Shown: positions 17,210-33,927, counted from the first letter of the stretch. The stretch: 64,000 nucleotides of DNA from an uncultured Desulfobacterales bacterium (GCA_964573805.1 CAZNKP010000020.1:75647-139646); one strand, 5' to 3'. The notes: generated from the sequence alone by a model not told the origin. A program made the numbers and translations.

Positions 17210-20200
17210 CTATCTGATCTTAAAAAATGTTGCATAGAGCACTGGCACAAACACCAATGTTAAGACCGTGGCAAAACCAAGGCCAAAGACAATGGTAACT
17301 GCCATGGATACAAAGAAGGCATCCTGGAACAGGGGAATCATCCCCATCATGGTTGTTAGCGCAGCCATCATAACAGGTTGCATCCTAGATACTCCAGATT
17401 CTATAATGGCCTCCATTCCTTTCATGCCAGATCTGATATTTATATCTATCTGATCAATAAGCACTAATGCGTTCTTTATGAGCATCCCTGAGAGACTCAT
17501 CAGGCCAAGGAGCGCCATGAAACCAAAGGGCTGTTTCAACAAAAGGAGACCTGCAGTTACGCCTATAAGGGCAAGGGGAACGGTGAGCCAGATAATCAGT
17601 GGTTGTCTGAAGGCATTGAACATAAAAATTACAATCAAGACCATCATTCCAAAGTATATAGGGATATTGGCCGCCAGCTGTTTTTGGGAATCTGATGAAT
17701 CCTCAAGTTCACCTCCCCACGCGATAAAATACCCCGGTTTGCCCTTGAGGGGTATTATGTCATCATATTTTATAGGGATGGTGGAAGCCGTCCACTTTTC
17801 GTCTTTCTCAAGAGGTTTTCCCCTGTAGGCAACAAGATCTACTCCGAGGGCCTGCTCGATTATTGGCTTTACTCTATTCATTAGTTCTGCAGGCAGCTCT
17901 TGGCGTGGATCCGCATGGATTTTGATCATCTGGCGCCTGTGCCATCTAGAGAGCCTCGCATTTTCCCATTTTGTCTCGATTCCGTTCAATACTTGTAATA
18001 TAGGCACATACTTATTGGCCATTGGACTGAAAAGTTGGATCTCGCTCAAATCTTCAATAGAGTCTCTTTCATCGTCAGGGGCACGGGCGATTATCGGAAG
18101 CAAGTTAACGCCTTCGCGGTAGACGCCTGTTGTCTTTCCAGAAAAGTTGGCCTCAATTGCTTGGGCCACCATTGGTCTAGTAATCCCCAGGGCCATAGCC
18201 CTGTCCTCTGCCAAAATTGGTACAGGAACCTTTACTTTTTCTCCCCACTCTGTTCTGACGGCCTTTGCATTTTCTTCCCTGAAAATCTCAATAGCCTTTT
18301 CCGCCAAGGCACGGAGCACTTCAGGATCGTCTCCATTTATTCTAAGTTGGATTTTTCCTCCATTGGCAGGTCCAAGATTGAATTTTTTGACATTTATCAC
18401 TGCATCCGGGAACATTCGTTCCAGATCTTTTTGAAACTTGGGCTGCATGGCGTCTATTTTTCTATAGTCGTCAACAGAGACCAGTATGCTTGCATATTGA
18501 TTAGCTGCCTCTACAGGTACGCCGTAGGTCAATAAAAAACGGGGATGTCCGCCTCCGATGGCTGATGCCACCTGGGTGATTCCCTCCTGTTTCATTAAAT
18601 ATTCTTCGATTTTTTTGACCTGTTTGGAAGTCTCCATTATATGAATTCCTTCCCTGAAAAAGCACTCTACCATAAATTGGGGCCTGGTTGATGCAGGGAA
18701 GAAGAGTTGTTTGACAAAACCGAAACCGTAAACAGACAAGGCGAAAAGACCAGCTACCACGGCAATGGTAATCCACCTGTGATTTATAGCCGTAAAGAGA
18801 AGTTTACGATAGATCTGATAAAACTTTCCGCCATATGCTCCTTCTGAGCCGCCCTTCATCTCCTTGTCCTTTTTGCTCATTATAAATTGTTTAGTTACAA
18901 GGGGAGTTGTCGTAACGGCAGTGATCCAAGAAAGAGACAGGGAAATAAGAATTACATAATAAAGGGACTGGCAATATTCTCCAGTAGAATTTGACATGCC
19001 TCCAATAGAAGCAAAGGCCATAATGGCTACTGCTGTAGCAGCAAGAAGCGGCATGGCATTTTGACCAACTATTTCCTTTGCCGCCTGGAGACCATCCATA
19101 CCTTGCTGCATCTTCACCTTCATGCCGTCAACAACCACTATGGCATTGTCTACCAGCATACCGAGGGCAATAATTAAAGCACCAAGGGATATGCGTTCCA
19201 AGGTTATGTGATAATAACCCATGACCACAAAGGTGGCAGCAATAGTCAGAATCAGGATGAAACCAATTATGATGCCTGAGCGGACTCCCATAAAAATGGC
19301 CAGGACAACTATAACAATGGCAACAGATTCAAGCAGGTTTATCACAAAGCCGTTTACAGCCTTGGTGACACTCTTGGACTGCATTGCAATCTCTACAAGT
19401 TCCATACCTACAGGGATTTGACTCTTTAACTCTTCAAGGCGCTTGAGCACAGCATTCCCCATTGTAACTGCGTTCCCGCCAAGAACAGTGGAAATGGCAA
19501 TACCTATACCCTCCTTGCCATCCACTCTTAGAATCTTGGAAGGTGGCTCCACATAGCCACGTTTTATTGTTGCAACATCCCTTAAATAGATGAGCCTGCC
19601 GTTTTTAGAGGCAAGAAATAGGTTGCCAAAGTCCTTTTCTGACTTGAACCCTCCTGTAGGATTTATTGCTAGGTATTGGGTGCCAAACTCGATACGCCCA
19701 GAATCTACAGCAAGGTTCTTAGCCCTAAGAGCATCAAAGATCTCCTGACGTGTAATGCCAAGAGCAGCCATTTTGGAACGGGATATCTCTACATAGATTG
19801 CTTCAGGGCGAACACCAAAAAGCTCGATCTTCTTTACATCCTGGACTACCAATAGTTCCCTTTGGAGAAGATCTGCTACCTCTTTCAGCTCTGCAAAGGT
19901 GTAGCCGTCACCCACAAGAGCAAAATAGACGCCAAAGACATCTCCAAAGGCGTCATTTACTGTAATGGGGCCAGCACCTGGAGGAAGCTCCTTTTCATGG
20001 TCTCCCATCCGTCTTCTAAGCTCATCCCATACTTGGGGCAGATCATTCTTCCGATATTTGTCTTTTATCTTTACATGGACAAGAGACATTCCCCGTGATG
20101 AATAAGACTCCACCCTTTTAAGTTGGCCCATTTCCTGGCAGGCCTTTTCAATTACTTCTGTTACCTCCTCCTGCACCTCTTTGGGTGAGGCACCAGGATA

Positions 20201-20350
20201 TGGGGTGAGAATTACTGCCTCTTTTATTGCAAACTCTGGATCTTCAAGGCGGGGAAGCCCCATGTAGGCGAAGTAGCCTAAAAAGAGCATAACCACTGTC
20301 AGTGTCCAGGTTATTACATTTTTCTTTATGGCAAATTCGGCAATGTTCAT
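17210..20350 (-). CDS. RND efflux transporter, AcrB/AcrD/AcrF (HAE) family inner-membrane permease
   Basis: 1046 aa with a 12-TM RND architecture and two large periplasmic loops. N-terminus MNIAEFAIKKNVITWTLTVVML is typical. Confidence 0.9.
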   Translation of the reverse strand: MNIAEFAIKKNVITWTLTVVMLFLGYFAYMGLPRLEDPEFAIKEAVILTPYPGASPKEVQEEVTEVIEKACQEMGQLKRVESYSSRGMSLVHVKIKDKYRKNDLPQVWDELRRRMGDHEKELPPGAGPITVNDAFGDVFGVYFALVGDGYTFAELKEVADLLQRELLVVQDVKKIELFGVRPEAIYVEISRSKMAALGITRQEIFDALRAKNLAVDSGRIEFGTQYLAINPTGGFKSEKDFGNLFLASKNGRLIYLRDVATIKRGYVEPPSKILRVDGKEGIGIAISTVLGGNAVTMGNAVLKRLEELKSQIPVGMELVEIAMQSKSVTKAVNGFVINLLESVAIVIVVLAIFMGVRSGIIIGFILILTIAATFVVMGYYHITLERISLGALIIALGMLVDNAIVVVDGMKVKMQQGMDGLQAAKEIVGQNAMPLLAATAVAIMAFASIGGMSNSTGEYCQSLYYVILISLSLSWITAVTTTPLVTKQFIMSKKDKEMKGGSEGAYGGKFYQIYRKLLFTAINHRWITIAVVAGLFALSVYGFGFVKQLFFPASTRPQFMVECFFREGIHIMETSKQVKKIEEYLMKQEGITQVASAIGGGHPRFLLTYGVPVEAANQYASILVSVDDYRKIDAMQPKFQKDLERMFPDAVINVKKFNLGPANGGKIQLRINGDDPEVLRALAEKAIEIFREENAKAVRTEWGEKVKVPVPILAEDRAMALGITRPMVAQAIEANFSGKTTGVYREGVNLLPIIARAPDDERDSIEDLSEIQLFSPMANKYVPILQVLNGIETKWENARLSRWHRRQMIKIHADPRQELPAELMNRVKPIIEQALGVDLVAYRGKPLEKDEKWTASTIPIKYDDIIPLKGKPGYFIAWGGELEDSSDSQKQLAANIPIYFGMMVLIVIFMFNAFRQPLIIWLTVPLALIGVTAGLLLLKQPFGFMALLGLMSLSGMLIKNALVLIDQIDINIRSGMKGMEAIIESGVSRMQPVMMAALTTMMGMIPLFQDAFFVSMAVTIVFGLGFATVLTLVFVPVLYATFFKIR

Positions 20351-20352
20351 GC

Positions 20353-21468
20353 TCAGATTTCCTCTCGCTGCTTCTCCCAGGGCCTGACCTTCATTCCCTC
20401 CTTCAGTTTTGTAACGCCAGCTATTACTATAATTTCTCCTGGTTTAAGCCCATCTGTGACCTTTATGCAGCAGGAATCTTTAAGGCTGCCCACTTTTACA
20501 AAACGTTTGTGCACCACCCCAGCATTTTTATCAAAGACCCAAAGATATGGCCGGTTGCCAGGAGCATCAAGCACGGCAAGGGCCGGAACTATAATCTCAA
20601 ATCCTTCAGGATTGCGGAAAGATGCCGTTACCGTTGCTGTCATACCGGGCAGGATCGCAGCCCCTTCTGGTTTGTTCATTTCGAAAACCACTTCGTAGGT
20701 CTGAGTGGCCGGATCTGCCTCTGTAGAATATTCTTTTATGGTAATTGGAAATTCCTTCCCTGGTATGGCTTGGAAAGATACAGAGACCCTATCTGCACTT
20801 CTTCCCTTAAGTGCAGCCATAATTAATTCTGGCACATTAATTATTATTTCCAGATGGGATATGTCTTGAAGAAAGGCTATAGGTTCTTTTGCCTTTACTT
20901 TATAAAAGTTTTCCACATATCTTTTGGCAATGACACCATCAAAGGGAGCTGTGAGGGTTGTATCACAAAGGGCATTTTTGGCATCTTCCAGTTTAGCTTT
21001 CGCAACGTCTCTTGCAGCAAGATAACGGTCGAAGTCTGCTTTTGACACCTGTCGTTTGGCATACAACTCTTGATATCGCCTGAATTGCTGTTCGGCTTCC
21101 CTGTAGCGAGCTAGCGCCTCTTTTACAGCTATGCGAAAATCTCTGGGATCTATTCGGGCTATAAGATCTCCTTTTTTCACAAATTGTCCTTCTTCAACAG
21201 GAAGCTCAACTAGCGGACCAGATACCTTAAATGAAAGAATCGCCCTTTTGCTTGCCCTGACTATTCCAGGAAAACCTTGGGTAAGAATTTGAGCCGTGTC
21301 CTTAACTTCCATGATTTTTACCGGTCTTATTATCTCTGGCTTTTGGGGAGGTTCCTCTTTCCCGCAACCGGGAATAAAAAGGAACAATACCAAAAAAACA
21401 GGCAATACTGAGGCCTTAGCGTATTTCCTCCAAATGAAATTTATAAGCCAATAAAATCTAATATCCAT
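20353..21468 (-). CDS. RND efflux periplasmic adaptor (membrane fusion protein, HlyD/AcrA family)
   Basis: 371 aa. Lipobox FIPGC, coiled-coil hairpin region and beta-barrel C-terminus. Lies 2 nt upstream of the RND pump. Confidence 0.85.
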   Translation of the reverse strand: MDIRFYWLINFIWRKYAKASVLPVFLVLFLFIPGCGKEEPPQKPEIIRPVKIMEVKDTAQILTQGFPGIVRASKRAILSFKVSGPLVELPVEEGQFVKKGDLIARIDPRDFRIAVKEALARYREAEQQFRRYQELYAKRQVSKADFDRYLAARDVAKAKLEDAKNALCDTTLTAPFDGVIAKRYVENFYKVKAKEPIAFLQDISHLEIIINVPELIMAALKGRSADRVSVSFQAIPGKEFPITIKEYSTEADPATQTYEVVFEMNKPEGAAILPGMTATVTASFRNPEGFEIIVPALAVLDAPGNRPYLWVFDKNAGVVHKRFVKVGSLKDSCCIKVTDGLKPGEIIVIAGVTKLKEGMKVRPWEKQREEI

Positions 21469-22160: not shown

Positions 22161-22271
22161 ATGAAACTATTGAAAAATTGGAGATTAAGACCGTTGTTAC
22201 TTTGCCTGTCGGCTATATGGGCAGCCGGCCTCATTCTATTTGGGTTTTTTCCCCATTATGTCTATGTATAA
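22161..22271 (+). CDS. 36-codon ORF encoding a TM helix, probably the displaced N-terminus (TM1) of the downstream MCP
   Basis: ATG at 22161 is preceded by AGAGGTGAG at 5-nt spacing. Translation is [36 protein letters not shown]. It overlaps the open reading frame of the MCP in another frame across a T6C4 tract (22245-22254). Confidence 0.45.
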
Positions 22272-23763
22272 GATGGAAAATAAGTTTTTCTTTATTACCA
22301 ATAAAATTATGCCAATATCTATAGGCTTCGAAAACATTACTAAAGAGCTGCTTAATCAGTCCAATATTCTCCTATTCCAAAGTCAACATGAGCCGTTATC
22401 CCTTAGGAGGTCAATAAAAAAGACTGAGACAGAAATGAAACGGATAAACAATATCCTTTCTGGCGCAAAGGCCAGGGTCCGTAACGGTCACTTTCAGATA
22501 GGAGAACTTGAGACAAGCATAAAGGCATTTGAAACACTGTTTCAGAAATACAAAACCACTATTCTGGCACAAATTGGTTCTGGCCCCGGCGGCAGTTCTA
22601 GACAGACAGACCTTGAAATGCAAAAGCTTAAGGCCCTGTTTGCTGATCTTACCTCTCTCAACACAAAGATTTCCTTGGGTTTAAGAGGACTTAACAAACT
22701 TGCATGGGATATGATAAGTGATCATGTAAATAAGCAGAAGCAGGTCTTGGCAATAATTAGCGGGGTTGTTTTTGTGTTTGGGGCGTTTTTCAGCATGCTG
22801 GTTTTTAAAGGTATAACAGCCAAGCTTAAAGATACCCATGATGCTGTTTCAGCTATAGCGACAGGGGAAGCAGATCTCACAAAGCGCGTGACTGTTGATG
22901 GCAAGACCGAGGTGGATGAGATTGCCATCTTACTGAACAAGTTTATAGAGAGAATGCAGTGTTTAATAAGAGATGTAAAGGAATATGGTCTTCAGGTAAG
23001 CTCTGGAGCAAAGGAAATGGGTGAGCTAGCCACGTCCTTGGCCAGTACTGCAGTTGAAGGAAATGCCCAGTCAGAAGAGGTTGCAAAATGTGCAAATGAT
23101 ACCGGAGACCAAATGGCCTCTATTGCCGCGGCAATGGAGCAGATGACTGCAACTGTCGGAGAGATAGCCCATAGTACAGCGGTTACCAGTCAGAAGTCGG
23201 GAGAGGCCGTTGAAAAGACGAGGCAGGCCCAGGAATTGGTGGAAGAACTGTCAACAGCCTCTGCAAGGATAAATGAAATGAGTAGTCTCATAGGCAGCAT
23301 TGCAGAGCAGACCAACCTCCTTGCTCTGAATGCGACTATAGAGGCAGCAAGGGCTGGAGAGGCAGGCAAGGGTTTTGCCGTAGTTGCAGGTGAGGTTAAG
23401 GAGCTTGCCAAACAAACCGGTGAGGCTGTTCAGAAGATAGATGCTACTGTAGTAGAATTGACAGAGCATGTAGAGCGGGTAAGGTCTGTCACAGACGACA
23501 TAGTTGACTCTATTCAGGAAGTAAGCGAACTTGCCGATAATGTTGCTGTTGCAGTGGAAGAGCAAACCGCCACCACCAACGAGATAAGTCAAAACGCTCA
23601 AACAGTTTCTGCAAATACAGGGCTGCTTGTAAGCCAAAGCGAAGGGATCAAAGAGGCAAGTACACAGACTGCGGCTGGCTCTGAACAGGCAAGGATTTCT
23701 GCTGGAGATCTTACGCTTACAGCATCCAACTTAGAAAAGACCCTTCATGCCTTTACTGTTTAA
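22240..23763 (+). CDS. Methyl-accepting chemotaxis protein (helical sensor domain, TM, HAMP, MCP signalling domain), apparently 5'-frameshifted
   Basis: 507 aa. Highly conserved MCP hairpin tip ([37 protein letters not shown]). One TM ([21 protein letters not shown]) followed by a HAMP domain. Only TM2 is present in this frame. Confidence 0.85.
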
Positions 23764-23770
23764 TATTAGG

Positions 23771-23812
23771 GGGCTACCTCTAAAATGTAATCCTGATTTT
23801 TAGAGGTAGCCC
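23771..23812. terminator. Strong hairpin between convergent genes (bidirectional intrinsic terminator)
   Basis: GGGCTACCTCTAAAA (23771-23785) pairs perfectly with TTTTAGAGGTAGCCC (23798-23812). A/T runs flank both arms. Located between the MCP stop (23763) and the ydbL-like stop (23829). Confidence 0.7.
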
Positions 23813-23828
23813 AAAAACTTTGGCTAGA

Positions 23829-24401
23829 TTATTTTCTTATCCATTTTCCAGGCTTCTTTTCTATAAAAGTACCCTTTGGGGCCGTATTTTGCCACTGTTG
23901 GGCGAAAATGGCCTGCACCCTTGCCAGCTGTGACGATGGAATGTTCAATGCTTGGGCAACGGCATTGTAAAGGGCCATTCTATCGCTGTTTTCTGCGTCT
24001 ATAAGTTTTTTTAAGTTTGCCTTCTCTTTCAGGCCAAGTCCAGAAAGGCTTCTGATGGTAAGAAGACCGTTTAGCCCTTCACCTATCAGTCCCTTTGCCA
24101 TATAAGGAGCAAGGGCGGGGAAGCGTTTTTTCATCCTTTCTTTAAGTTGACGTATGGTTGCATTTGATACGGTAAGCTCACTAGCTGCATGCGCCTCTGA
24201 AACAGAAAAGAACCAGGATGTAGGAGATGGTGTTGCCGGCTGCCCGTCCTGTTTAGGTTGTTGTTCTCGCACGTCTTTAACTATGTCTTCTGCAGCCTTT
24301 CTTACCTCAGCAGCTGGAAAATAGATATTTACAGTTACACATGCTGTCAAAAACAATAAAAGCATAGGCACCAAAAGTCCCCGGTTTTTTGTTACTGTCA
24401 T
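23829..24401 (-). CDS. YdbL-like DUF1318 lipoprotein
   Basis: 190 aa with lipobox LFLTAC. The C-terminal ~100 aa match the DUF1318 pattern by eye (GLIGEGLNGLL...LIDAENSDRMALYNAVAQALNIP...FIEKKPGKWIRK). Confidence 0.75.
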   Translation of the reverse strand: MTVTKNRGLLVPMLLLFLTACVTVNIYFPAAEVRKAAEDIVKDVREQQPKQDGQPATPSPTSWFFSVSEAHAASELTVSNATIRQLKERMKKRFPALAPYMAKGLIGEGLNGLLTIRSLSGLGLKEKANLKKLIDAENSDRMALYNAVAQALNIPSSQLARVQAIFAQQWQNTAPKGTFIEKKPGKWIRK

Positions 24402-24402
24402 A

Positions 24403-26103
24403 TTATTTCACCTCCACTTTACTTTGACCGGACTCGCTGATCCTTTTGAGTCTATCAAGCATGTCCCTGAAACTTATCCTACCGTTGGGATTCATATTAA
24501 TAACATTAACGCCACCCCAAAAGCCCCTTTTTACCAAATATTCCTTTCCTCCACTTTTATAGAGACCATGGAGTTCAAATACATCGTTTTTGAGCCTGCA
24601 GGATATTCCTATACGACTGTAAGAGAATTCTTTAAAAAGTCCGCCAAGAAATGATACAGAACCTCCTCCTCCTCCAAGTATAGAGAGATTCTCAATGGCT
24701 TTGATGCTGATTTTTTTGGGTTCTTTAGAAGATTGATCAGTCTCTATCTGCAAGTCAAAGGCCTCTGGTTGTCCTCCGCTCATGATCAGCCCTTTTATCC
24801 ATCCATTAATTTTGCCAGTAACTAGACCAAAAGAAGTGTCTTTGCTAAACTCTTTAAGATCAATATGGGAGAAGCTTATATCAGCGCCCCATCGCGGGAT
24901 GGCTGCATAGGGCTCAATCCAGATATTGGTTATCTCAATTTCACCTTTTGCGACTTCTATGTCAATTTTTCCTTTAAATAAAAGCCGATCTTTTTCAAAA
25001 TTTGCCTTTGGTAAGGTGCCGTTTACCACTATTTCAAGAGGAACGTTATTTAAGAGCTCGTTAACTTTTAGATTGTTAATTTTGATATTTTTTAGAACCA
25101 ATGTTCCACGTGAAAATAGAAATTGGGCCTCTTCCATTGATATGATACCAGAGCCAAGACTTAACCTTAGAGTCCCAAGATGGAGACTTTTGTGACAAAG
25201 GGTCACAGGAAGACTCGTTCCGAGTATGGCCATGCTAGCATGTTTTTTGAATATTCCTCTGGGAATTAGCGGAGCAAGATAAACTTCCTGCCACATCAAG
25301 GTTCCTTTGTCGCACCTTGTATCAGAAAGAGGATAGGAAAGATGTGCCTCAAGCCCCTTTATCAGCCTTTTCTCTTTGTAGAAAATATCACTGGTAAGCC
25401 TAAGCAAGATGCTTGTTGACTTGCCCTGTAATAGAAGTCTGCCATTGGGTCTGAAGTCTTTAACTATAGGCCGAGAATCAGAAAAGGCATCCCTTATAAA
25501 GATATTATAAGTACGTTCGATATTTGCATCCAACTGCCAATTTGCTTTTATAAGACGGTTTAAAAAAACGTTTCCCTTGTTTGCATTTTTGGGCAAGGCC
25601 AGCCTCTTAATCTTTAGAGAGAAAGGGCCGTACAATCTGAAATCTTTGATGAAAATTTGACGGTCAGTAACTTTGCCTTCTGCCTTAAGGCTCCCTTTTA
25701 CTTCAGAAAGATCAAGAAACCATGGAAAGATAAGCACTTGGCCTCTAGGCCAAGCAGCCTTGACCTGCCAGGAAAAAGAAGGATTCTTGCCAGATAGGTC
25801 ACCTTCCAAGTCGAAATTCAAAAGGATATCTAGCCCTTCAAAGGCATGGTCTATATCTTTTGAGCCTGCCAGATCTGTTAGATTAAACCTTCCCTTTATG
25901 CACAGTATCTCTCCATCACTAGCTCTTGATACCGAAACGCCTGGCAAGGATAAGGCCAGCCCACTTATTTGATGGGCTGCTAAAGGGTAGGCATGGATTA
26001 TTTTGGGACACAGCATAAATAACAATAGCCCTAGACCTAGCCAGAGGCAGCGATACGGGTATACCTGTCTATTAGGTGTATTCAGATATCTTTTTCTTTC
26101 CAT
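24403..26103 (-). CDS. YdbH-like (AsmA-like superfamily) envelope protein
   Basis: 566 aa. N-terminal signal/anchor (CLWLGLGLLLFMLCPKIIHA) and a beta-rich repetitive body. The call rests mainly on synteny with the DUF1318 gene 1 nt downstream, as in the E. coli ydbH-ynbE-ydbL operon. Confidence 0.5.
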   Translation of the reverse strand: MERKRYLNTPNRQVYPYRCLWLGLGLLLFMLCPKIIHAYPLAAHQISGLALSLPGVSVSRASDGEILCIKGRFNLTDLAGSKDIDHAFEGLDILLNFDLEGDLSGKNPSFSWQVKAAWPRGQVLIFPWFLDLSEVKGSLKAEGKVTDRQIFIKDFRLYGPFSLKIKRLALPKNANKGNVFLNRLIKANWQLDANIERTYNIFIRDAFSDSRPIVKDFRPNGRLLLQGKSTSILLRLTSDIFYKEKRLIKGLEAHLSYPLSDTRCDKGTLMWQEVYLAPLIPRGIFKKHASMAILGTSLPVTLCHKSLHLGTLRLSLGSGIISMEEAQFLFSRGTLVLKNIKINNLKVNELLNNVPLEIVVNGTLPKANFEKDRLLFKGKIDIEVAKGEIEITNIWIEPYAAIPRWGADISFSHIDLKEFSKDTSFGLVTGKINGWIKGLIMSGGQPEAFDLQIETDQSSKEPKKISIKAIENLSILGGGGGSVSFLGGLFKEFSYSRIGISCRLKNDVFELHGLYKSGGKEYLVKRGFWGGVNVINMNPNGRISFRDMLDRLKRISESGQSKVEVK

Positions 26104-27380
26104 CTCAGTGGGAAAAGCAGCGTTACTCTGGTGCCATGGCCTGGGATGCTATCTATCTCGATTTGTCCTTGATGTTCCTTCATGATGTGATGGACCATTA
26201 TGAGCCCCACTCCAGTGCCTGAAGGTTTGGTGGTAACAAGTTCCTTAAATAGTTTAGCCTTTACTTCCCTGCTTATTCCTGGTCCCTGATCCTCGATCTC
26301 AATGGCTGGCCTCCCTTCTATTTTTTTGATCTCCACTTTTATGCTTGCTCCATTGGGAGAGGCATCTGCTGCGTTTTTGAGCAAATGTAATACGGCTACT
26401 TTCAGGGTTCTTGGGTTTCCTCTTATGCGAACTGGATTTTCTGGGGCCTTGAACTCTACCCGAATCCCCTTTTTTTCAAAATTAGGCTGCCAGGCTTCCA
26501 GTATCTCTTTGACCAGATCTTGCAACACGACCTTTGTAAAGAACCTCTCCTGTTCCCTGGCCAATCCTTCAAAGTCTTTTACTATGGCCTCGAGTTTTTG
26601 AGCTTCAAGATATATGGCCTTTATCTTGTCCCTTTCAGAGGAATTTTCAGGAAGTTTTTTCAAAAGTATTCTTGCCAGGCCTCCGATAATGGTGGCAGGA
26701 TTTCGAACTTTATCTGCTATCTTGAGGGCAAATTCTACTATTGTGCGCTCATGGACTAAAGATTCCATGTCTTTGCTAAGCTCTAAAAGTTCAGCATTTA
26801 CCTTATCTAATTCCTTGTTTTTCAAGGAAATGGTTCTTAAAAGCGACAAGACTTCTTGGTGCTTGGCCCTAAGATTTTCAATATAAGATTCCTGCAAGTC
26901 CTTAAAGACCTGTTGGCGAATCTGCTCCTGTCCCTTTAAAAGACTCCCGCAGTCTGGTTCATCTCCAAACAGCATTACCTCTAGCTCAAAGGATCTGTCT
27001 TGGTTGAATTTTTTTATCTCTAACCGATCAGCTATGTTTTTGATTCCTTGAATAAGTTGGTGAATGGGAGAATGTGAATCAAAGGAACGGGGGCATATTT
27101 CACCCCAAAAATGCACCATTAAGCCAGGAAGTCCAGGACTGTCCCATCCGTTAATACTTGCGCATATAATGTAGAAAATAACTCGCCCTCCCTTTGTCTG
27201 TTTTAATAAAAAACGGGCCATTTCTGAGGCCATAAGGGCTATTTTAACGCGTCTAGTACGTGAAAATCCTCCAAGAGTAGCAAGAAGTTTTGCTTTGGAT
27301 CTGACGAGTGGAATGTCTTTCGGGCGTTTGATAACCAAGGTCAAGACGTGAATCTTCTGGCTCAGCTTTTCCATTTCCAC
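26082..27380 (-). CDS. Histidine-kinase-like ATP-binding protein (degenerate N-terminal GHKL-like domain, coiled coil, DHp-like helix, HATPase_c)
   Basis: 432 aa. C-terminal N/G1/G2 boxes (LLKNAADAS, EDQGPGI, GTGVGL). The H-box-like segment FALKIADKVRNPATIIGGLARIL has Asp where the phospho-His is expected. Confidence 0.75.
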   Translation of the reverse strand: MEMEKLSQKIHVLTLVIKRPKDIPLVRSKAKLLATLGGFSRTRRVKIALMASEMARFLLKQTKGGRVIFYIICASINGWDSPGLPGLMVHFWGEICPRSFDSHSPIHQLIQGIKNIADRLEIKKFNQDRSFELEVMLFGDEPDCGSLLKGQEQIRQQVFKDLQESYIENLRAKHQEVLSLLRTISLKNKELDKVNAELLELSKDMESLVHERTIVEFALKIADKVRNPATIIGGLARILLKKLPENSSERDKIKAIYLEAQKLEAIVKDFEGLAREQERFFTKVVLQDLVKEILEAWQPNFEKKGIRVEFKAPENPVRIRGNPRTLKVAVLHLLKNAADASPNGASIKVEIKKIEGRPAIEIEDQGPGISREVKAKLFKELVTTKPSGTGVGLIMVHHIMKEHQGQIEIDSIPGHGTRVTLLFPLRWKEKDI

Positions 27381-28444
27381 ACCACTAGTGCAGCGTCATC
27401 GCACTGCCTATCGCAAGGGAGAAACAGATAGTTTGTCCATATCAAGCTTGGGATATCCATTAGGACCTGTTGAAATTTTATGGGAGGAATAGGGCCAATT
27501 CCGTCTGTGTAAAGGATACCCATTGTTTCTTTAAAATTCTTATAATGCCAGGAAACGAGGCCACTTTTTGAATTTATAGGACCGATAAGCCCCTTTTTCC
27601 CAGAAATTAGATTTTCTTTTCCGTCTAAAAACAAAAGATGGTTTACATTTCCGGCCACAGCGATCTTTACCTCTGGCCTTTCTATATCCAATCTGACCAC
27701 TTGAGCCATCAGGCCCCGTGAGCCAACCATATGATTCCCAAGGGCCATCAGTGCATCCATCGGTTCGGTTTCAGCAGGTAAAAGGGCAAGAAATTTTTTG
27801 GCAGAAAAGATTATTTTTGCTGCCTCTGGACCCTTGCCAAGGGCGTCCATAAGCACCATTAGGATGTAGGGATGCCTGCAGGAAAAAAAGAAACCGTCTC
27901 CACAGTAGAGGTTTCCCTTTGCAGGTCTTACAAGAAAGGATAGCTCCACAGGTAAGCGACTCAAGATGTCTGGAGGTTCTGCAAAGGAGGCAGCAACCAA
28001 GGTTTCATACTCCTTTTTCCCCAACAAAAGATCCGGACAGGGAAAGTCTCCGAGTCTTCCAGAGCACACAGCAAATTCTTCGGCAAGCCTTCTTGCAGTG
28101 CCAAGACCAGCCCCTAAGCCTTGGTTTCCGTAAAAATCTCTGTTGCAGATCCGAAAGACAGGCATTATTCCTGGCCCCTTATCCAAGCTGCATGTTACGA
28201 AAAAGGCCTGCTCTGTTCCAATCCTTTGCCCAAAGAGTCTGATCATTCCTTTGTGGGTATTATGATCTATATGATTTTGGGCAAGTTCGCTTACGCACAA
28301 GACTATATCAGAGATTTTAGAGGAGGAAAAACCAAGTTGCCTGGCAAGCTTGTCCGCTGCCTTTCTGATCAAAAATACATGGGCCTGGATGGATATATCT
28401 TTTTCGTACCACAGGGGTTGTAGCCCATCTATATCCACTTCCAC
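27362..28444 (-). CDS. ATP-binding SpoIIE/PP2C-family protein phosphatase (RsbW-like GHKL domain + PP2C domain, RsbX/RsbU analogue)
   Basis: 360 aa. N-terminal anti-sigma-kinase-like boxes (VSELAQNHIDH, DKGPGI, GLGAGLG). C-terminal PP2C motifs (CGDGFFF, LMDALGKGPEAA, ILYTDGI). Confidence 0.8.
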   Translation of the reverse strand: MEVDIDGLQPLWYEKDISIQAHVFLIRKAADKLARQLGFSSSKISDIVLCVSELAQNHIDHNTHKGMIRLFGQRIGTEQAFFVTCSLDKGPGIMPVFRICNRDFYGNQGLGAGLGTARRLAEEFAVCSGRLGDFPCPDLLLGKKEYETLVAASFAEPPDILSRLPVELSFLVRPAKGNLYCGDGFFFSCRHPYILMVLMDALGKGPEAAKIIFSAKKFLALLPAETEPMDALMALGNHMVGSRGLMAQVVRLDIERPEVKIAVAGNVNHLLFLDGKENLISGKKGLIGPINSKSGLVSWHYKNFKETMGILYTDGIGPIPPIKFQQVLMDIPSLIWTNYLFLPCDRQCDDAALVVWKWKS

Positions 28445-28857
28445 ACCTCCACCCGTGTTCCGCCATCAATAAGGCTTGCAACCCTTAGATCATCTGCAAG
28501 GGCATTCAAAAGATTTAATCCCATGCCCATACCTTTATCTTGAGAAAAGCCTGGGGTCATAGCCTCGGCCAGATCGGATATTCCAGTACCCCGGTCTTCA
28601 GCTACCATCCTTACGGCCTTCTTTTCTCCTTCTTGGTAAACTGTTATACATATCTTTCCTCCTTGACTGTGCCGAAGAATATTGTTTCCAAGCTCATCCA
28701 AGATGGTAAGGGCTTCAGCCTGTTTCATCTCGTTTTTTAGACCCAGCCAAGAAAAAAGCTCCCTTAAGACCTTTCTGGCCTTTGTTAGTCCTACATTTCT
28801 AGATACAGGTGTACACCTTTTGGCTATCGAAATTTTATTTTTTACTGTATCAGTCAA
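28429..28857 (-). CDS. RsbT-like serine/threonine kinase (anti-sigma regulatory factor, GHKL)
   Basis: 142 aa. N box ELGNNILRH, G1 EDRGTGI, G2 GMGMGL. TTG start overlaps the upstream STAS gene stop. Confidence 0.8.
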   Translation of the reverse strand: MTDTVKNKISIAKRCTPVSRNVGLTKARKVLRELFSWLGLKNEMKQAEALTILDELGNNILRHSQGGKICITVYQEGEKKAVRMVAEDRGTGISDLAEAMTPGFSQDKGMGMGLNLLNALADDLRVASLIDGGTRVEVWKWI

Positions 28858-29218
28858 CTCTTATTAGTTTGTGTCCCAGTTTCCCAAGCGCCTGTTCTGC
28901 ATCAAGTGCAAATCTTAGGTTGTGTCCAAAACTCATGTTAAAACTTTTCAAGGCGGCAATTGCAGAAGCTCCAAGGCCTGCCACCACTATCTGTGCTTTG
29001 AAAAGTCCCATGGTAGAGGCGAGCTTTTGTATATTTTCTGCAAGAAAGGTATCTATTACTTCTACATCAGATAGATCTACAATTACAGCTTTTGAATTTG
29101 TGGCCCGCACCTTTTCTGCTAGTTCCTTCAGAAGTTGAAGCACCTGTGCATCGTCTATTTCCTCTTGAAGAGACACAAGGAGGATCTTACCAAGATGAAA
29201 TATTGAAAAAGATTTCAT
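28850..29218 (-). CDS. RsbS-like single STAS-domain protein
   Basis: 122 aa. STAS core VIVDLSDVEVIDTFLAENI, with Thr at the position of the phosphorylatable Ser of B. subtilis RsbS. Confidence 0.8.
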   Translation of the reverse strand: MKSFSIFHLGKILLVSLQEEIDDAQVLQLLKELAEKVRATNSKAVIVDLSDVEVIDTFLAENIQKLASTMGLFKAQIVVAGLGASAIAALKSFNMSFGHNLRFALDAEQALGKLGHKLIRVD

Positions 29219-29226
29219 TCAAGACC

Positions 29227-30108
29227 TCAGAGTTCTTGGTTATCTTCCAATGCCTTAATGGCCTTTACCTGTTTTTGGCGCGTTTTGGTTATCTGTTGCA
29301 TGGCATAATGGAGTCCATCTGCCATGCGGCTCCTTACGTTTATGGTACCAAGATCGACCCCAAGGTGGGCCATGGTCAGGGCAATACGTGAAGAGATTCC
29401 TGTCAGGACCGCCTCGCTTCCCATAAGGCGGACTGCATCAACTGTCTGGAGGAGGTAGTTTGCCACAGCAGTATCGACATTGGGTACCCCTGTAATATCA
29501 ATAATAACAAAGGGAGCGCGTGTTGACTCTATTGTAACGAGTAATCTTTCCATTGCGGATTGTGCCCGATGGCTGTCAAGTGTACCAACCAGCGGGAGCG
29601 CCAAGACCCCGTCCCATACTTCGATAACTGGCGTGGAAAGTTCAAGGATTTCTTCTTGCAAGTGGCGGATGTCTTCATCACGTTTTTTTAAGAGTTCTTC
29701 TTGCTGCCTGAGGATGAGCCTTTCCTTTTCAAGACGGTCAGAAATGTCTATGAAATGTTCAACGCAACCTATTATCTCTCCCTGATGATTTTTTATAGGG
29801 CGGCTGGCAAACTCGATGGGTATCTCTTTCTCTCCTACTTTTAAAGTGGTCTGTCCTTGATTGACTGTATTGTTTTTCGTGGCTACCTTGCAGGTACATT
29901 GATCTGTCTGGCACATTGGTGTATGGAATATCTCGTAGCACTTGCGGTCGAAGCAGTCTCCAGGGGTTCTGCCAACTAGTTCTGCCCCCGCCTTGTTAAT
30001 AATAAGTATATTGTTATCCAGGTCTGTTACAAATATGCCCGAGGGAACGGCATTGATTATCTCAAACAGGAATCCTTCATCTCCTTGGTAGTCCTTTAAT
30101 TCAGTCAT
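29227..30108 (-). CDS. RsbR-like sensor: Cys-rich PAS domain + coiled linker + STAS domain
   Basis: 293 aa. PAS (INAVPSGIFVTDLDNNILIINKAGAELVG...), linker, then STAS (PVIEVWDGVLALPLVGTLDSHRA...VIIDITGVPNVDTAVANYLL). Strong AAGGAGGGAGG Shine-Dalgarno upstream. Confidence 0.8.
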   Translation of the reverse strand: MTELKDYQGDEGFLFEIINAVPSGIFVTDLDNNILIINKAGAELVGRTPGDCFDRKCYEIFHTPMCQTDQCTCKVATKNNTVNQGQTTLKVGEKEIPIEFASRPIKNHQGEIIGCVEHFIDISDRLEKERLILRQQEELLKKRDEDIRHLQEEILELSTPVIEVWDGVLALPLVGTLDSHRAQSAMERLLVTIESTRAPFVIIDITGVPNVDTAVANYLLQTVDAVRLMGSEAVLTGISSRIALTMAHLGVDLGTINVRSRMADGLHYAMQQITKTRQKQVKAIKALEDNQEL

Positions 30109-30291
30109 GACCTCCCTCCTTTTGATCGTGTAATAAAAAATTTTAGCAAAAAGGGGGCATTTCGTCTAATAACCGCCCTGTTAATCAAGCAGATAAAAAA
30201 TAAAAAGTTGCATTCGCATTTAAGAAAAAAAGCGGCAAATCCGATGGATTTAATGAAAATAAGGATTTTTAAAGGAGGCTTAAAGATTCTC

Positions 30292-30978
30292 ATGAAAAAT
30301 TATTTAAAAAAAAACTTTTTCTCAAAATCTAAAAGCCAGATGGCAGGTTTTACATTGATAGAGATGGCCATAGTTCTTGTAATTATTGGTATCATCATAG
30401 GCGCTGTTATGAAAGGACGGGATCTCATAAAATCTGCCCAGATCAAGAATGCCTATGAAACCTTTTTTGCTGCCCATTACAAGATGATCGGTTCCTATTA
30501 TGATAAGACAGGAAGAATCTTGGGGGATGGAACCATTAATGGGGGAACTGGTACTAACCCAAATGGTTGGATGGACAATATCGGTCTTTACAATGGAACA
30601 AACAGAAGCAATATCATCAATGCCCTAAAAAGTGTTGGAATAGATGTATGCTCTTTAGTAAAAAGCAACCTTACATCTACCGAATGTGGCCCAAATGGAT
30701 TGAACATTGGCCAGATTTCTCTAGATGGCGAATATGCCAGGCAGACCGTTTGGGTAGGTTATTATTATGCAAACTTTGCCGGAAGGTATAGAAACTATCT
30801 GAGGATCGATAGGATACCTACAGACTTTGCCATCGCCCTGGATAAGATGATAGATGGGGTTGCAAATTGTGCATCAGGTTCCTTTGTTGTCGTTCCTGGA
30901 GAGACCTGTAATAACGGCCAATGGCCTGATGCCAGCTCCACACCCTATGTAAGGGCCGCTTGGATTGTAGAGTTTTAG
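30292..30978 (+). CDS. Type IV pilin / pseudopilin-like protein (probable major subunit)
   Basis: Start set at ATG 30292 (AAAGGAGG upstream). Class III signal MKNYLKKNFFSKSKSQMAG|FTLIEMAIVLVIIGIIIGAV with Glu at +5. About 209 aa mature. Confidence 0.8.
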   Translation: MKNYLKKNFFSKSKSQMAGFTLIEMAIVLVIIGIIIGAVMKGRDLIKSAQIKNAYETFFAAHYKMIGSYYDKTGRILGDGTINGGTGTNPNGWMDNIGLYNGTNRSNIINALKSVGIDVCSLVKSNLTSTECGPNGLNIGQISLDGEYARQTVWVGYYYANFAGRYRNYLRIDRIPTDFAIALDKMIDGVANCASGSFVVVPGETCNNGQWPDASSTPYVRAAWIVEF

Positions 30979-31006
30979 TTTTCCACCAACCACCTCCTCC
31001 TCATAT

Positions 31007-31034
31007 GCCGGACCTGCTAGAAGGCAGGTCCGGC
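31007..31034 (+). terminator. Perfect 11-bp GC-rich hairpin after the pilin gene (attenuator or mRNA-stabilising element)
   Basis: GCCGGACCTGC (31007-31017) and GCAGGTCCGGC (31024-31034) around a 6-nt loop. No U-tract. Lies between the pilin stop and the ATPase start. Confidence 0.45.
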
Positions 31035-31078
31035 CACATTCAAAATACCTGTCCAAATGCTAGCAAGGGTCTGTATCT

Positions 31079-32725
31079 ATGAACAGAAATAAGAAACCAC
31101 TTGGAGCACTTTTAAAAGAACAAGGCCTTGTCACCGAGCAACAGATCCAATTCGCCTTAGCCGAGCAAAAGGCAACCGGGGAAAAACTCGGCGAATGCCT
31201 CATGCGTCTGGGTATAATTACCGATTCGGAGCTTGCCATTGCTCTCTCTAAACAGACAGGTGTCCCCTATATAGATCTCAAGTCTTTTTCGGCAAATAAA
31301 GAGGCCTTGAGAAAGGTGCCCTCGCATATTGCAAGGACCCAGCAAATCTTGCCCCTGCGTTTAAATGGTAATGAAATAGAGGTGGCAACGGCAGACCCCT
31401 ATGATCTCAATGCTACCCAGATAATACTCAGGGCAACAGGACTCAGGGCCAGACTCTTTGTTGCCGCGGAGGGAGAAATCAGGAAGCTGGTTGAACGATA
31501 TTACTATCTTATTGAACATCCTGTTGATGAAGAGATTCTGAAGATTATTCAGATGGCTAGCCAAAGATCCGGTATGGAAATAGACATGACCGGATTGACC
31601 GACCTTATTCTTACCTCGGCAGTTATACAAAGGGCTACAGATGTACATATCACTCCAAGTGATCGTTCTTGCAGGATTATGTTCCGGATAGATGGGGTAT
31701 TAGAGGCAAAGTATGTTTTCCCTTTTAAAATCCACAACAAGATTATAACCAACCTTAAGGTCAAGGCGGGGATGGATATATCCGAACAGAGGAGAGCCCA
31801 GGACGGCCGGATGTCCTTCGAGTTTCTTGGAGACAGTTTTGACATCAGGGCGTCTACAGTAAAGACAAATTTTGGAGAAAACATGGTGCTTAGGCTTTTG
31901 CCATCCAAGGGCGAATCCCTATTAAACCTGGAACAACTTGGTTTCCATAAGGAACAGCTTGGGCTTATTCAGCGTCTTTTTTCTCGTCCCTACGGTATCG
32001 TGCTCATAACTGGTCCTACCGGCAGTGGAAAAACAACAACACTTTATGCAGCCTTGAGGCGCCAGAATGCCATAGAGAAAAATATAGTTACAGTTGAAGA
32101 TCCGATTGAATACCAATTTTTAATGATAAGACAGACCCAAGTCAACACCAAGGCTGGGTATACCTTCGCCTCTGCAATCAGGACCTTTTTGCGTCAGGAT
32201 CCAGATGTGATTTTGGTAGGCGAAATTAGGGATAGCGAAACCGCTTCCCTTGCAACCCGGGCTGCCATTACAGGGCATCTTGTCCTTTCCACCCTTCACA
32301 CTAACAGCGCTGTAGGGGCCTTGGCCAGGCTCAAAGATTTAGATATTTCTCCCTATCTGCTTTCAACTTCTTTGTCAGGGATAATTGCCCAGCGTTTGGT
32401 AAGAAAACTTTGTCCTTATTGCAAGAATCCTTCTCGTCCCACCCCTGAGGAGGCTGCAGCCCTGGATATACCACCTGAGACAGAAATCTTTAGAGAAAAG
32501 GGCTGTAGTCAATGCAGGAATACCGGTTTTATGGGCAGGACAGTTGTTGCGGAAATCCTTAGTTTTTCGGAGGCATTGCTGAAACAGGTGGCTAGAGACG
32601 AACCACTTAGCGAGATACTTTCCACTGCCCATTCTGAAGGTTTCTTGCCTCTTAAAGAGCAGGCAAGACTAAAGGTAATTAACGGAGTAACAAGTCCTGG
32701 CGAGGTAAGGAGGGTGATTGGCTGA
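31079..32725 (+). CDS. GspE/PilB-family type IV filament assembly ATPase with an MshEN-type N-terminal domain (MshE-like)
   Basis: 548 aa. Walker A GPTGSGKTT, Asp box VEDPIEY, Walker B DPDVILVGEIRD, His box GHLVLSTLHTN, tetra-Cys CPYC...CSQC. Two tandem 24-residue MshEN-like motifs in the N-terminus. Confidence 0.9.
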   Translation: MNRNKKPLGALLKEQGLVTEQQIQFALAEQKATGEKLGECLMRLGIITDSELAIALSKQTGVPYIDLKSFSANKEALRKVPSHIARTQQILPLRLNGNEIEVATADPYDLNATQIILRATGLRARLFVAAEGEIRKLVERYYYLIEHPVDEEILKIIQMASQRSGMEIDMTGLTDLILTSAVIQRATDVHITPSDRSCRIMFRIDGVLEAKYVFPFKIHNKIITNLKVKAGMDISEQRRAQDGRMSFEFLGDSFDIRASTVKTNFGENMVLRLLPSKGESLLNLEQLGFHKEQLGLIQRLFSRPYGIVLITGPTGSGKTTTLYAALRRQNAIEKNIVTVEDPIEYQFLMIRQTQVNTKAGYTFASAIRTFLRQDPDVILVGEIRDSETASLATRAAITGHLVLSTLHTNSAVGALARLKDLDISPYLLSTSLSGIIAQRLVRKLCPYCKNPSRPTPEEAAALDIPPETEIFREKGCSQCRNTGFMGRTVVAEILSFSEALLKQVARDEPLSEILSTAHSEGFLPLKEQARLKVINGVTSPGEVRRVIG

Positions 32726-33927
32726 TGAGTTGGTACAGGTATGAGGCCCTTGCCCCTGACGGTACGAAGATAGTTGATGAAGGCCAATTCGGGACCTCTG
32801 CCGAGCTTTATAGGAGCCTTCGGGATCAGGGCTACGTACTGCTTGACTATAAAAAAAAGATATTCAGGTTCGGAAGCCTGTTTCCCGTCAGGATAAAGCG
32901 TGGTGTACTTGCAGAATTTTTCAGGAATCTTGCACTCGTACTGAAGGCAGGAGTACCTTTGGTTGAGGCACTACAAGATATTGCGGATTCACCAGGTGCA
33001 GTAAAGTTCAGGATCGTTATTAAGGACCTTGTACAGAGAATAAGGTCTGGAGAACTTTTTTCCGAGGCCCTTTCCCATCATGAGTCTATTTTCCCAAACA
33101 TAGTTATAGTTCTCGCCCGTCTCGGTGAGGAGACAGGACAGCTTGACAGGACCCTTGAGGATGCTGCCAACCATCTGGAAAGGGTCCAAGAAATTATTGA
33201 TAAGACCAAACGGGCCCTCAGTTATCCTGTCGTAATTTTGACAGCCATGATTGGTGCTTTGGCGTTTTGGCTTATCTATGTGTTGCCAAAGTTGTTTGAG
33301 TTGTTCAAAAGTCTTGGCCTAAAAAAGCTCCCTATTATGACAAGGATACTTTTTTCGGTTGTAGAAGGGGTTAAGGCCTACTGGTTCGTCTTGCCAACGA
33401 CAGTGGTTATTTTGACTGTTTTTGGCATTTTGGCATCCAGGAATCAAAAGCTAAAGCTCTTTTGGGATACCTTGTGGTCTAAGGTGCCACTTGTCGGGAG
33501 AATAATCAAGGCCTCCCAGCTGGCATTCTTTTTTGAATACCTGGCCCTTCTCACAGCTTCTGGCATAGATGTCATTAGAAGTCTTGATGTGATGGAGGGC
33601 GCCATTACTCATCAGATATTGAAGAAAGACATCTCTAAGGTAAAGAAACTGGTACTTTCAGGCTTTTCTCTATCCGAGGCTTTTAGAGAGTGCTCGTTTT
33701 TCGAGGCCTTTATCCTCCGTATGATAAAAGTGGGAGAGACTACCGGCCATATGCCTGAACAACTCAAGATACTGGCAGATTTTTATATGGTAAAGGTAAA
33801 CAGGATGGTGGATTCCATGGCCAAGACCTTGGAACCCCTGCTCATAATATTCGCTGGCATAATATTTGTAATCATAGTTATGGGTCTACTTGGTCCAATA
33901 TATGACATGATGGGGAGTCTCAAATAA
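32725..33927 (+). CDS. GspF/PilC/MshG-family platform protein
   Basis: 400 aa with two T2SSF-type repeats and 3 TM segments. ATG overlaps the ATPase stop (TGATGA). Confidence 0.9.
   Translation: MSWYRYEALAPDGTKIVDEGQFGTSAELYRSLRDQGYVLLDYKKKIFRFGSLFPVRIKRGVLAEFFRNLALVLKAGVPLVEALQDIADSPGAVKFRIVIKDLVQRIRSGELFSEALSHHESIFPNIVIVLARLGEETGQLDRTLEDAANHLERVQEIIDKTKRALSYPVVILTAMIGALAFWLIYVLPKLFELFKSLGLKKLPIMTRILFSVVEGVKAYWFVLPTTVVILTVFGILASRNQKLKLFWDTLWSKVPLVGRIIKASQLAFFFEYLALLTASGIDVIRSLDVMEGAITHQILKKDISKVKKLVLSGFSLSEAFRECSFFEAFILRMIKVGETTGHMPEQLKILADFYMVKVNRMVDSMAKTLEPLLIIFAGIIFVIIVMGLLGPIYDMMGSLK

Follow-up and report, generated by a model that had tools for sequence, protein, structure and literature searches.

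Does a stressosome-type signaling module here control an envelope device, or do two separable units share one transcript? The question is raised by seven minus-strand genes at positions 23829 to 30108 of a 64,000-nucleotide stretch of DNA from an uncultured Desulfobacterales bacterium (GCA_964573805.1 CAZNKP010000020.1:75647-139646; here called the window). An earlier reading of the window, referred to below as the original prediction, had described these genes as one operon and had proposed that the output of the stressosome is an envelope or lipid-homeostasis device. The window is part of a 177-kb metagenome contig (ENA ERZ27262694; also SRR8542060). All seven open reading frames (ORFs) were found at the coordinates it had claimed. 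With moderate confidence, we read the locus as a composite, lineage-specific operon that enforces the co-expression of two separable units, a self-contained signaling cassette (genes 1 to 5) and an envelope pair (genes 6 and 7). What we show here is how the operon is built, which domains its proteins contain, that the fusion is conserved, and that the two units can occur apart.

Seven genes in one operon

In transcriptional order, the genes are predicted to encode an RsbR-like co-antagonist with a Cys-rich PAS sensor, a linker helix, and a STAS domain (29227 to 30108, 293 amino acids [aa]); an RsbS-like single-STAS antagonist (28850 to 29218, 122 aa); an RsbT-like GHKL serine/threonine kinase (28429 to 28857, 142 aa); a fusion of an RsbW/RsbT-like GHKL domain to a PP2C phosphatase of the SpoIIE/RsbX type (27362 to 28444, 360 aa); a pseudo-histidine kinase (HK-like; 26082 to 27380, 432 aa); an envelope protein with an N-terminal hydrophobic anchor or signal and an all-beta region (gene 6; 24403 to 26103, 566 aa); and a lipoprotein with a YdbL/DUF1318 domain (gene 7; 23829 to 24401, 190 aa). 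The junctions between them, 5' to 3', measure +8, -8, -16, -19, -22, and +1 nucleotides (nt). The Pfam content follows the same order: PAS plus STAS, STAS, HATPase_c/HATPase_c_2, HATPase_c_2 plus SpoIIE, HATPase_c plus a weak HisKA, none, and DUF1318. An NCBIfam scan of the seven proteins agreed with Pfam and likewise gave no match for the 566-aa protein.

Conservation of the gene order

The linkage was checked by a gene-neighborhood survey, in which loci carry the prefix L. About 16 further assemblies of Thermodesulfobacteriota carry the genes in this order, and the genes on either side differ. It is complete in L003, L004, L007 to L013, L015, L016, and L030 and is incomplete at contig ends in L005 and L006; in L031 and L032 it lacks RsbT and gains a gene for a small CxxCH lipoprotein between the HK-like gene and gene 6. 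The carriers are metagenome-assembled genomes (MAGs) of Thermodesulfobacteriota/"Deltaproteobacteria," mostly from sediment assemblies. Among the operon loci, identity to the window is 35 to 68% for gene 6 and 45 to 79% for the HK-like protein, and the full operon sits in at least five different upstream and downstream contexts. Because the same order recurs with different flanks, the linkage proposed in the original prediction is not chance adjacency. Three branches of the gene-6 tree hold the full operon, a distribution with which the HK-like tree agrees; both trees fit one old junction followed by several losses.

The extra gene (4065 to 4334 in L031, 3799 to 4050 in L032) encodes a lipoprotein-like protein of 83 to 89 aa with a CxxCH heme-binding motif. 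A reading of the L031 gene as the split-off N-terminal half of an AsmA-like protein was rejected on inspection of that gene.

The two units occur apart

Each unit is also found without the other. The cassette without the envelope pair is present in the cultured species Dissulfurimicrobium hydrothermale and in at least 14 metagenome loci, where the downstream genes are unrelated. In L094 to L110, the order RsbR-RsbS-(RsbT)-GHKL/PP2C-HK-like is followed by genes for Fe-S/CCG, glutamate-synthase-like, PAS kinase, HisF/H, or DUF2238 proteins, and in the complete genome of D. hydrothermale (CP085041) and in L164/L165 the five cassette genes end at a convergent gene. The envelope pair without the cassette was found at more than 60 loci. 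These include close relatives, such as L018, and all of the more distant members lack the cassette. At L002 (63% identity), which has no cassette, a divergent pilin-like gene directly abuts gene 6; at L014 (54%), a PurQ-like gene stands in the cassette's place, and the upstream synteny is that of L003. The envelope pair itself is tightly linked, with a DUF1318 gene directly after gene 6 in 78 of the 80 loci found through gene 6.

Three loci show intermediate arrangements. The cassette and the envelope pair are separated by two genes in L093. In L017, RsbRSTG is absent and the HK-like gene alone stands ahead of genes 6 and 7, with the overlap (-19) that is usual at this junction. The HK-like protein of L090 is sister to that of L017 in the tree and also has no Rsb genes upstream; its short contig ends just after the gene.

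Genes 1 to 4 as stressosome-type proteins

The RsbR-like protein matched Pfam PAS_4 (E = 1.1e-12) and STAS (1.2e-14), and its best matches in the Protein Data Bank (PDB) were the stressosome RsbR chains 7o0i (Vibrio vulnificus), 6qcm, and 7b0u (both Listeria). No other protein of the operon comes close to it in conservation. The Ser of its LDSHRA phospho-site is invariant, and the Thr of VDT is kept in all RsbT-containing cassettes. The RsbT gene is missing from a subset of related cassettes (L031, L032, L093 to L110, and L137), in whose RsbR the equivalent of the VDT Thr is Ala, Ser, or Glu; there the kinase role may be supplied by the GHKL-PP2C fusion. The PAS domain contains six cysteines in the pattern GxCFDRKC..F.TP[ML]C....C[TP]C plus GCVE[HN]F, which is invariant in all 28 sequences compared, and these sequences reach down to the most distant cassettes. 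In the window, the pattern reads GDCFDRKC...F.TPMC....CTC and GCVEHF (29761 to 29964 and the 29764 to 29778 region; residues ~49 to 116). Because this cysteine pattern is invariant, the PAS domain is probably a metal, Fe-S, or redox sensor.

RsbS matched Pfam STAS (2.1e-8), its best PDB match was stressosome RsbS, and the phosphorylatable Ser/Thr of its IDT/IDS motif is kept in 27 sequences. RsbT matched HATPase_c (2.4e-10) and HATPase_c_2 (1.6e-9) and has conserved N, G1, and G2 boxes; its PDB matches were only to SpoIIAB-type anti-sigma kinases, a family-level similarity. The assignment of the first three genes as RsbR, RsbS, and RsbT was thus borne out, since the best solved-structure matches of RsbR and RsbS are stressosome chains and the motifs are kept. 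The fourth protein matched HATPase_c_2 (1.9e-7) and, below the 25-bit cutoff, SpoIIE (4.4e-5, 23.9 bits). Its phosphatase motifs GD, DxxGxG, T/SDG, and DD and its GHKL N, G1, and G2 boxes are conserved across 24 orthologs. With respect to an RsbX-type phosphatase, then, the SpoIIE match is sub-threshold and the catalytic Asp motifs are kept; unlike single-domain RsbX, this protein is a GHKL fusion. Together with the HK-like gene, these four genes appear to form a stressosome-type cassette.

Gene 5 as a putative pseudo-histidine kinase

The HK-like protein matched HATPase_c strongly (7.8e-22, 78 bits) and HisKA below threshold (1.1e-4). At the canonical H-box histidine it has Asp223, within IADKVRNPA in the window and IADK[IV]RNPA in the family. 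D223 is invariant in 18 orthologs reached via the neighboring gene and in 37 homologs found by protein search, down to 34% identity, confirming the earlier description of a His-less kinase-like protein. The metagenome HK-like loci were retrieved with the H-box Asp motif as one of two search patterns, so they are not independent confirmation of D223. The catalytic and ATP-binding (CA) domain is intact, with conserved N, G1, and G2 boxes. Four residues of the HK-like protein, His-Glu-Arg-Thr (H210 to T213, window 26742 to 26753), resemble an H-box (HExxT) and are invariant.

The N-terminal region has its own affiliation. Many HK-like homologs carry precomputed HATPase_c_2 (PF13581) plus HATPase_c (PF02518) annotations, and in an AlphaFold2 (AF2) model built with homologs from a database search (predicted local distance difference test [pLDDT] score, 79) the alpha/beta N-terminal domain fits HATPase_c_2. 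The architecture comprises a degenerate RsbW-like GHKL domain, a long coiled coil, a dimerization and histidine phosphotransfer (DHp) domain, and the CA domain. In Foldseek, the DHp-CA part matched the cores of ZraS, DivL, HK853, and RetS; the H-box context is xxxRNPx, and AtoS, ZraS, and PilS-type kinases rank highest among the family and structure matches. On these sequence and model comparisons, gene 5 is best described as a putative pseudo-histidine kinase of NtrB/PilS ancestry with an RsbW-like N-terminal domain.

DivL, which has Tyr in place of His, and RetS are pseudo-histidine kinases that signal by protein-protein contact. As gene 5 is predicted to do, both retain a DHp-CA core without canonical His autophosphorylation, and they are among its top structural matches. 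Gene 5 differs from them in its Asp, in its RsbW-like N-terminal domain, and in its place in a STAS/GHKL partner-switching cassette.

By Pfam, there is no sigma factor, response regulator, or GGDEF gene among the seven proteins. The original prediction had reported this and had also reported no anti-sigma RsbW; a separate RsbW gene is indeed absent from the operon, but homologs of the HK-like protein have an RsbW-type HATPase_c_2 domain at their N terminus. No receiver domain was detected in the operon genes or the scanned flanking genes, so no nearby cognate response regulator was found, and the ORFs of the 64-kb window include no PilR/PilS-type response regulator or kinase.

The envelope proteins

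The 566-aa protein had been called YdbH-like. It matched nothing in Pfam or NCBIfam, even at E = 10, and membership in the Pfam YdbH family (PF11739) was rejected, with sub-threshold hits in a few relatives only. Alignment with hhalign of the gene-6 family against E. coli YdbH and a profile of 17 enterobacterial YdbH sequences gave no match, and that profile is too shallow to decide the matter because the homolog search gave only relatives at least 70% identical. The family profile also found no match among PDB sequences. The AF2 model of the 566-aa protein (pLDDT, 81.5) is almost purely beta, with long strands behind an N-terminal hydrophobic helix; Foldseek against the PDB found nothing significant, only weak matches to LptA, LptC, and ApoB100.

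The affiliation becomes visible in longer relatives. A gene-6 profile search of 1.84 billion proteins gave 2,197 clusters at 50% identity, of which 1,659 had E <= 1e-30, and profile positions ~60 to 565 align to the C-terminal ~500 residues of proteins of 850 to 1,100 aa. Longer relatives were scanned with Pfam, 42 of them loci from the genome scan and 45 of them profile-search hits. AsmA matches were obtained in 5 of the 42 and 8 of the 45 (best E, 5.7e-33), DUF748 matches in 10 and 13 (3e-15), YhdP matches in 11 and 9 (6.5e-9), and YdbH-like matches in 4 and 3 (3e-6, sub-threshold). One 1,442-aa protein (P0165) combines an AsmA N terminus at residues 1 to 180 (115 bits) with a 566-like module at residues 924 to 1431. 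Since longer members carry AsmA, DUF748, or YhdP N termini, an AsmA-like affiliation of the gene-6 family is supported at the level of sequence, and this part of the earlier description held; the part that placed the protein with YdbH in PF11739 did not. The window protein has a hydrophobic N terminus and the C-terminal ~500-residue module only, without the N-terminal AsmA/chorein-like part. It would therefore belong, as a form shortened at the N terminus, to an AsmA-like family that is distinct and unannotated. Most members of that family (P0149 to P0292) have no Pfam annotation above threshold. Short and long forms of gene 6 occur within one subclade, short in L008 and L013 and long (~835 aa) in L009 to L012.

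Residues 92 to 190 of gene 7 form a YdbL/DUF1318 domain (PF07027, 6.8e-17; 62.2 bits, with the cutoff at 27 bits). In BLASTP, gene 7 matched E. coli YdbL at 1e-8, and the best PDB match was YdbL (28oj). A lipoprotein signal is present, with the lipobox LTAC. With domain, E. coli match, and lipobox all found, the earlier assignment as a DUF1318/YdbL-type lipoprotein stands. Throughout the family, the N terminus keeps the motif CVT[VI]NIYFPA and, after it, a helix. BLASTP detected no YnbE similarity in gene 7, and the Pfam YnbE model matched none of six N-terminal fragments. A reading of gene 7 as a YnbE-YdbL fusion was rejected for want of sequence similarity and is kept as an architectural analogy only. 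Both envelope proteins are predicted to be periplasmic, except for ~18 N-terminal residues of the 566-aa protein.

Junctions and expression signals

The stop codon of the HK-like gene had been placed 22 nt inside the 566-aa ORF. This overlap is supported by a start at -22 (-19 in L017) in 11 of the 17 operons, where an ATG or GTG lies in the same RW codons of the HK-like C terminus, and by the hydrophobic signal or anchor that the -22 start precedes. At this overlap, the 566-aa gene has no Shine-Dalgarno sequence of its own. Other core-clade gaps are 0 to +17 nt, and the first start candidate of gene 6 in L030 is at +43. In L003 (9908 to 9954) and L086, KEGKIEGPF replaces RWKEK.. at the HK-like C terminus and there is no -22 start (TTG at -17, ATG at +31), a difference that could be a local frameshift or an assembly difference.

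The 5' leader (30109 to 30175, minus strand) contains a strong Shine-Dalgarno sequence, AAAGGAGGGAGG, and one sigma-70-like site (30168 to 30140). The strong Shine-Dalgarno sequence claimed for the first gene is therefore present; that it occurs only there is not the case, since GGAGG also precedes the DUF1318 and GHKL-PP2C genes. In consensus scans for promoters and terminators, the real sequence had no more sites than shuffled sequences had, so the sigma-70-like match is weak. The strong terminator described after the last gene is in part confirmed: a 15-bp hairpin (23771 to 23812, strand unassigned; -23.9 kcal/mol, z = -4.42) folds better than any of 200 shuffles, but it lacks a U-tract, lies between the convergent DUF1318 and methyl-accepting chemotaxis protein (MCP) genes, and was not called by the consensus terminator scan. 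It is likely a bidirectional transcript end. An Rfam scan of 23000 to 31500 matched no RNA family.

Neighboring genes

Divergent from the operon, on the plus strand at 30208 to 35211, lies a type IV pilus/MSHA-like cluster that encodes a pilin-like protein carrying an N-methylation motif, a T2SSE ATPase whose MshEN domain is of the c-di-GMP-binding type, a T2SSF platform protein, and an AAA_22 plus SH3 protein. Of these genes, the ones for the pilin-like protein and the ATPase keep their synteny in the closest relatives. PilR-like (sigma-54 activator) and PilS-like (6TM_PilS) proteins are encoded at L163 (2836 to 5911), L164 (2325 to 5388), L097 (3453 to 5228), and L023 (3497 to 6734); such pilRS genes with the cassette or the envelope pair make up a recurring three-way neighborhood in Dissulfurimicrobium, other lineages, and SEEP-SRB2-like MAGs. 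On the downstream side, a HAMP-MCP chemoreceptor gene (22240 to 23763, plus strand) converges on the terminal hairpin of the operon, and a resistance-nodulation-division (RND) efflux pair, an AcrB-type transporter and an HlyD-type adaptor, follows at 17210 to 21468 (minus strand).

Discussion

We propose that genes 1 to 5 constitute a cytoplasmic partner-switching phospho-signaling cassette. In such a cassette, the Cys-rich PAS domain of RsbR would sense a redox or metal cue, RsbR and RsbS would form a STAS scaffold holding RsbT, and RsbT would phosphorylate the conserved Ser/Thr sites, which the GHKL-PP2C fusion, judging by its conserved motifs, would reset. The pseudo-kinase would be the terminal element and, by analogy with DivL and RetS, may act by ATP-dependent protein-protein contacts. 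With Asp in place of His, a canonical His-Asp relay is ruled out for this protein, and signaling by protein contact is therefore probable. Genes 6 and 7 would form a periplasmic pair composed of the shortened AsmA-like, beta-rich protein and the YdbL-domain lipoprotein. In the lineage of the window, this pair appears to have been drawn into the transcript of the cassette and probably into the same translation train, such that it would be made when, and only when, the cassette is made. Its synthesis may be tied to cassette expression in this way because gene 6 starts inside the pseudo-kinase gene without a Shine-Dalgarno sequence. We infer translational coupling, the nature of the sensed signal, signaling by protein contact, and any regulatory meaning beyond co-expression, direct signaling from the cassette to the envelope device included.

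Several observations weigh against this account. Public gene calls begin the 566-aa gene at Met30, which gives a protein of 537 aa and a gap of 65 nt, and the pseudo-kinase gene may contain an internal promoter. The helix that carries Asp223 also carries, 13 residues upstream of that residue, an invariant His210-Glu211. Because this pair is invariant so near to Asp223, a non-canonical phospho-His is conceivable, and H210 could be a displaced phospho-acceptor. Finally, the HK-like gene stays with the envelope pair in L017 and L090, which hints at more than passive co-expression.

This last arrangement bears on the model of the original prediction, in which the AsmA-like/YdbL device would have its activity, assembly, or stability under the direct control of the cassette. 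The pseudo-kinase would then be an inner-membrane adaptor that, for example, binds or phosphorylates the short basic cytoplasmic tail of the 566-aa protein. The model gains from the conservation of the operon with rearranged flanks, from the tight overlapping HK-like/gene-6 junction, and from L017 and L090, which retain only the HK-like gene with the envelope pair (the L090 contig ending after the HK-like gene). It gains also from L031 and L032, where the linkage survives both the absence of RsbT and the gain of the CxxCH lipoprotein gene, and from the fact that no other output gene was found in the operon or the window. However, one cultured genome and at least 14 metagenome loci, whose neighbors vary, have the cassette but not the envelope pair, the reverse is true of most of the envelope pair's family and of close relatives, and the envelope proteins are predicted to be periplasmic apart from those ~18 N-terminal residues, whereas the cassette is cytoplasmic. 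The separability and the difference in compartment weaken the idea of an envelope device as stressosome output, while L017 and L090 keep it alive; we judge such dedicated control unlikely. The narrower claim, that the His-to-Asp pseudo-kinase is a dedicated adaptor coupling a cytoplasmic, Cys-based stressosome for redox or metal cues to an intermembrane lipid bridge of the AsmA-like type, at the level of its assembly or activity, is kept open by the L017/L090 arrangement and the conserved overlapping junction, and we hold it to be quite doubtful. If true, it would give bacteria their first bridge-type lipid transporter under signal regulation, and the output of the stressosome would lie outside sigma factors, two-component relays, and c-di-GMP.

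The output could also be transcriptional, through an unlinked NtrC-type (sigma-54) regulator. The pseudo-kinase, as a descendant of an NtrB/PilS/ZraS-type kinase, would then modulate a PilS-PilR-like pair by heterodimerization or regulator sequestration, as RetS does with GacS, and the envelope genes would be passengers or members of the regulon. The H-box context of the pseudo-kinase and its AtoS, ZraS, and PilS-type matches are consistent with this possibility, as are pilR-pilS-like genes immediately upstream of the cassette in L163, L164/L165, and L097 and ~2 kb upstream of the envelope pair in SEEP-SRB2-like loci, and the pilus cluster divergent from the operon in the window. Yet the 64-kb window holds no PilR/PilS homolog and the pilRS adjacency is confined to some lineages, which leaves this route improbable in our estimate. 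Least likely of all is adjacency by descent without a functional link, the units being ancestral neighbors or the cassette having been inserted upstream: a distribution compatible with one ancestral junction and later losses, the two intervening genes in L093, and the functioning of each unit alone elsewhere would allow it, but the order has been kept over deep divergence in both gene 6 and the HK-like gene while the flanks changed repeatedly, the junctions have been compacted to overlaps, and the linkage has outlasted the loss of RsbT, the gain of an additional gene, and variation of gene 6 between a long and a short form.

The composite operon that we favor resembles known systems in each of its halves. 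A Vibrio-type rsbRSTX module followed by a two-component-like module is known from V. vulnificus and V. brasiliensis (PMC9237108, PMC4976288), and an RsbU_N domain was not found in its downstream kinase (PMC9237108). There, as here, RsbR, RsbS, RsbT, and a PP2C protein precede a histidine-kinase-type protein in a Gram-negative organism, with no SigB, RsbU, RsbV, or RsbW gene. The systems differ in that the sensor is a six-Cys PAS domain here and a globin in Vibrio, and in that the phosphatase here is fused to a GHKL domain. Also in contrast to Vibrio, the kinase here has an Asp at the phospho-acceptor position and an RsbW-like N-terminal domain, no response-regulator/GGDEF partner follows, and two envelope genes are fused to the operon. 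With the stressosome of Bacillus subtilis and Listeria (RsbR-RsbS-RsbT with RsbU-V-W-SigB-RsbX), the cassette shares STAS proteins whose best matches are solved stressosome chains, the phospho-Ser/Thr positions, and the GHKL motifs; the sigma-factor partner-switching arm of those species has no counterpart among the genes found here.

On the envelope side, E. coli YdbH-YnbE-YdbL is an intermembrane lipid bridge (PMC11126948; PMC8593681; bioRxiv 10.64898/2026.03.16.712125). In both systems a large, beta-rich, inner-membrane-anchored AsmA-like protein is followed by a lipoprotein and a YdbL/DUF1318 domain in the same order. Gene 6, in contrast to YdbH, has no PF11739 match and lacks the N-terminal AsmA/chorein-like part of its longer relatives, and the lipoprotein and YdbL domain here are one polypeptide. 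The N terminus of gene 7 shares with YnbE a layout of lipid anchor, short strand, and helix, with no detectable sequence homology. A literature search of the accessible library for links between stressosomes and DUF1318 or AsmA, or for RsbR/S/T in Deltaproteobacteria, found no paper. New here are the Cys-rich PAS RsbR, the GHKL-PP2C fusion, and the invariant His-to-Asp pseudo-kinase; the unannotated AsmA-like family with its lipoprotein-YdbL fusion partner; and the fusion of the two units in one operon.

These findings bear on two questions, namely, how stressosomes signal in bacteria without SigB and whether AsmA-like lipid bridges are regulated. A stressosome-type cassette ending in a pseudo-kinase is widespread, and because it is present in the cultured D. 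hydrothermale, it is experimentally accessible. The AsmA-like family, with its ~2,200 clusters at 50% identity, no Pfam model of its own, and a lipoprotein-YdbL fusion as its near-constant partner, extends the logic of YdbH-YnbE-YdbL far beyond the Proteobacteria. Should the two units be linked by co-expression only, this would still indicate in which conditions these anaerobes remodel their envelope.

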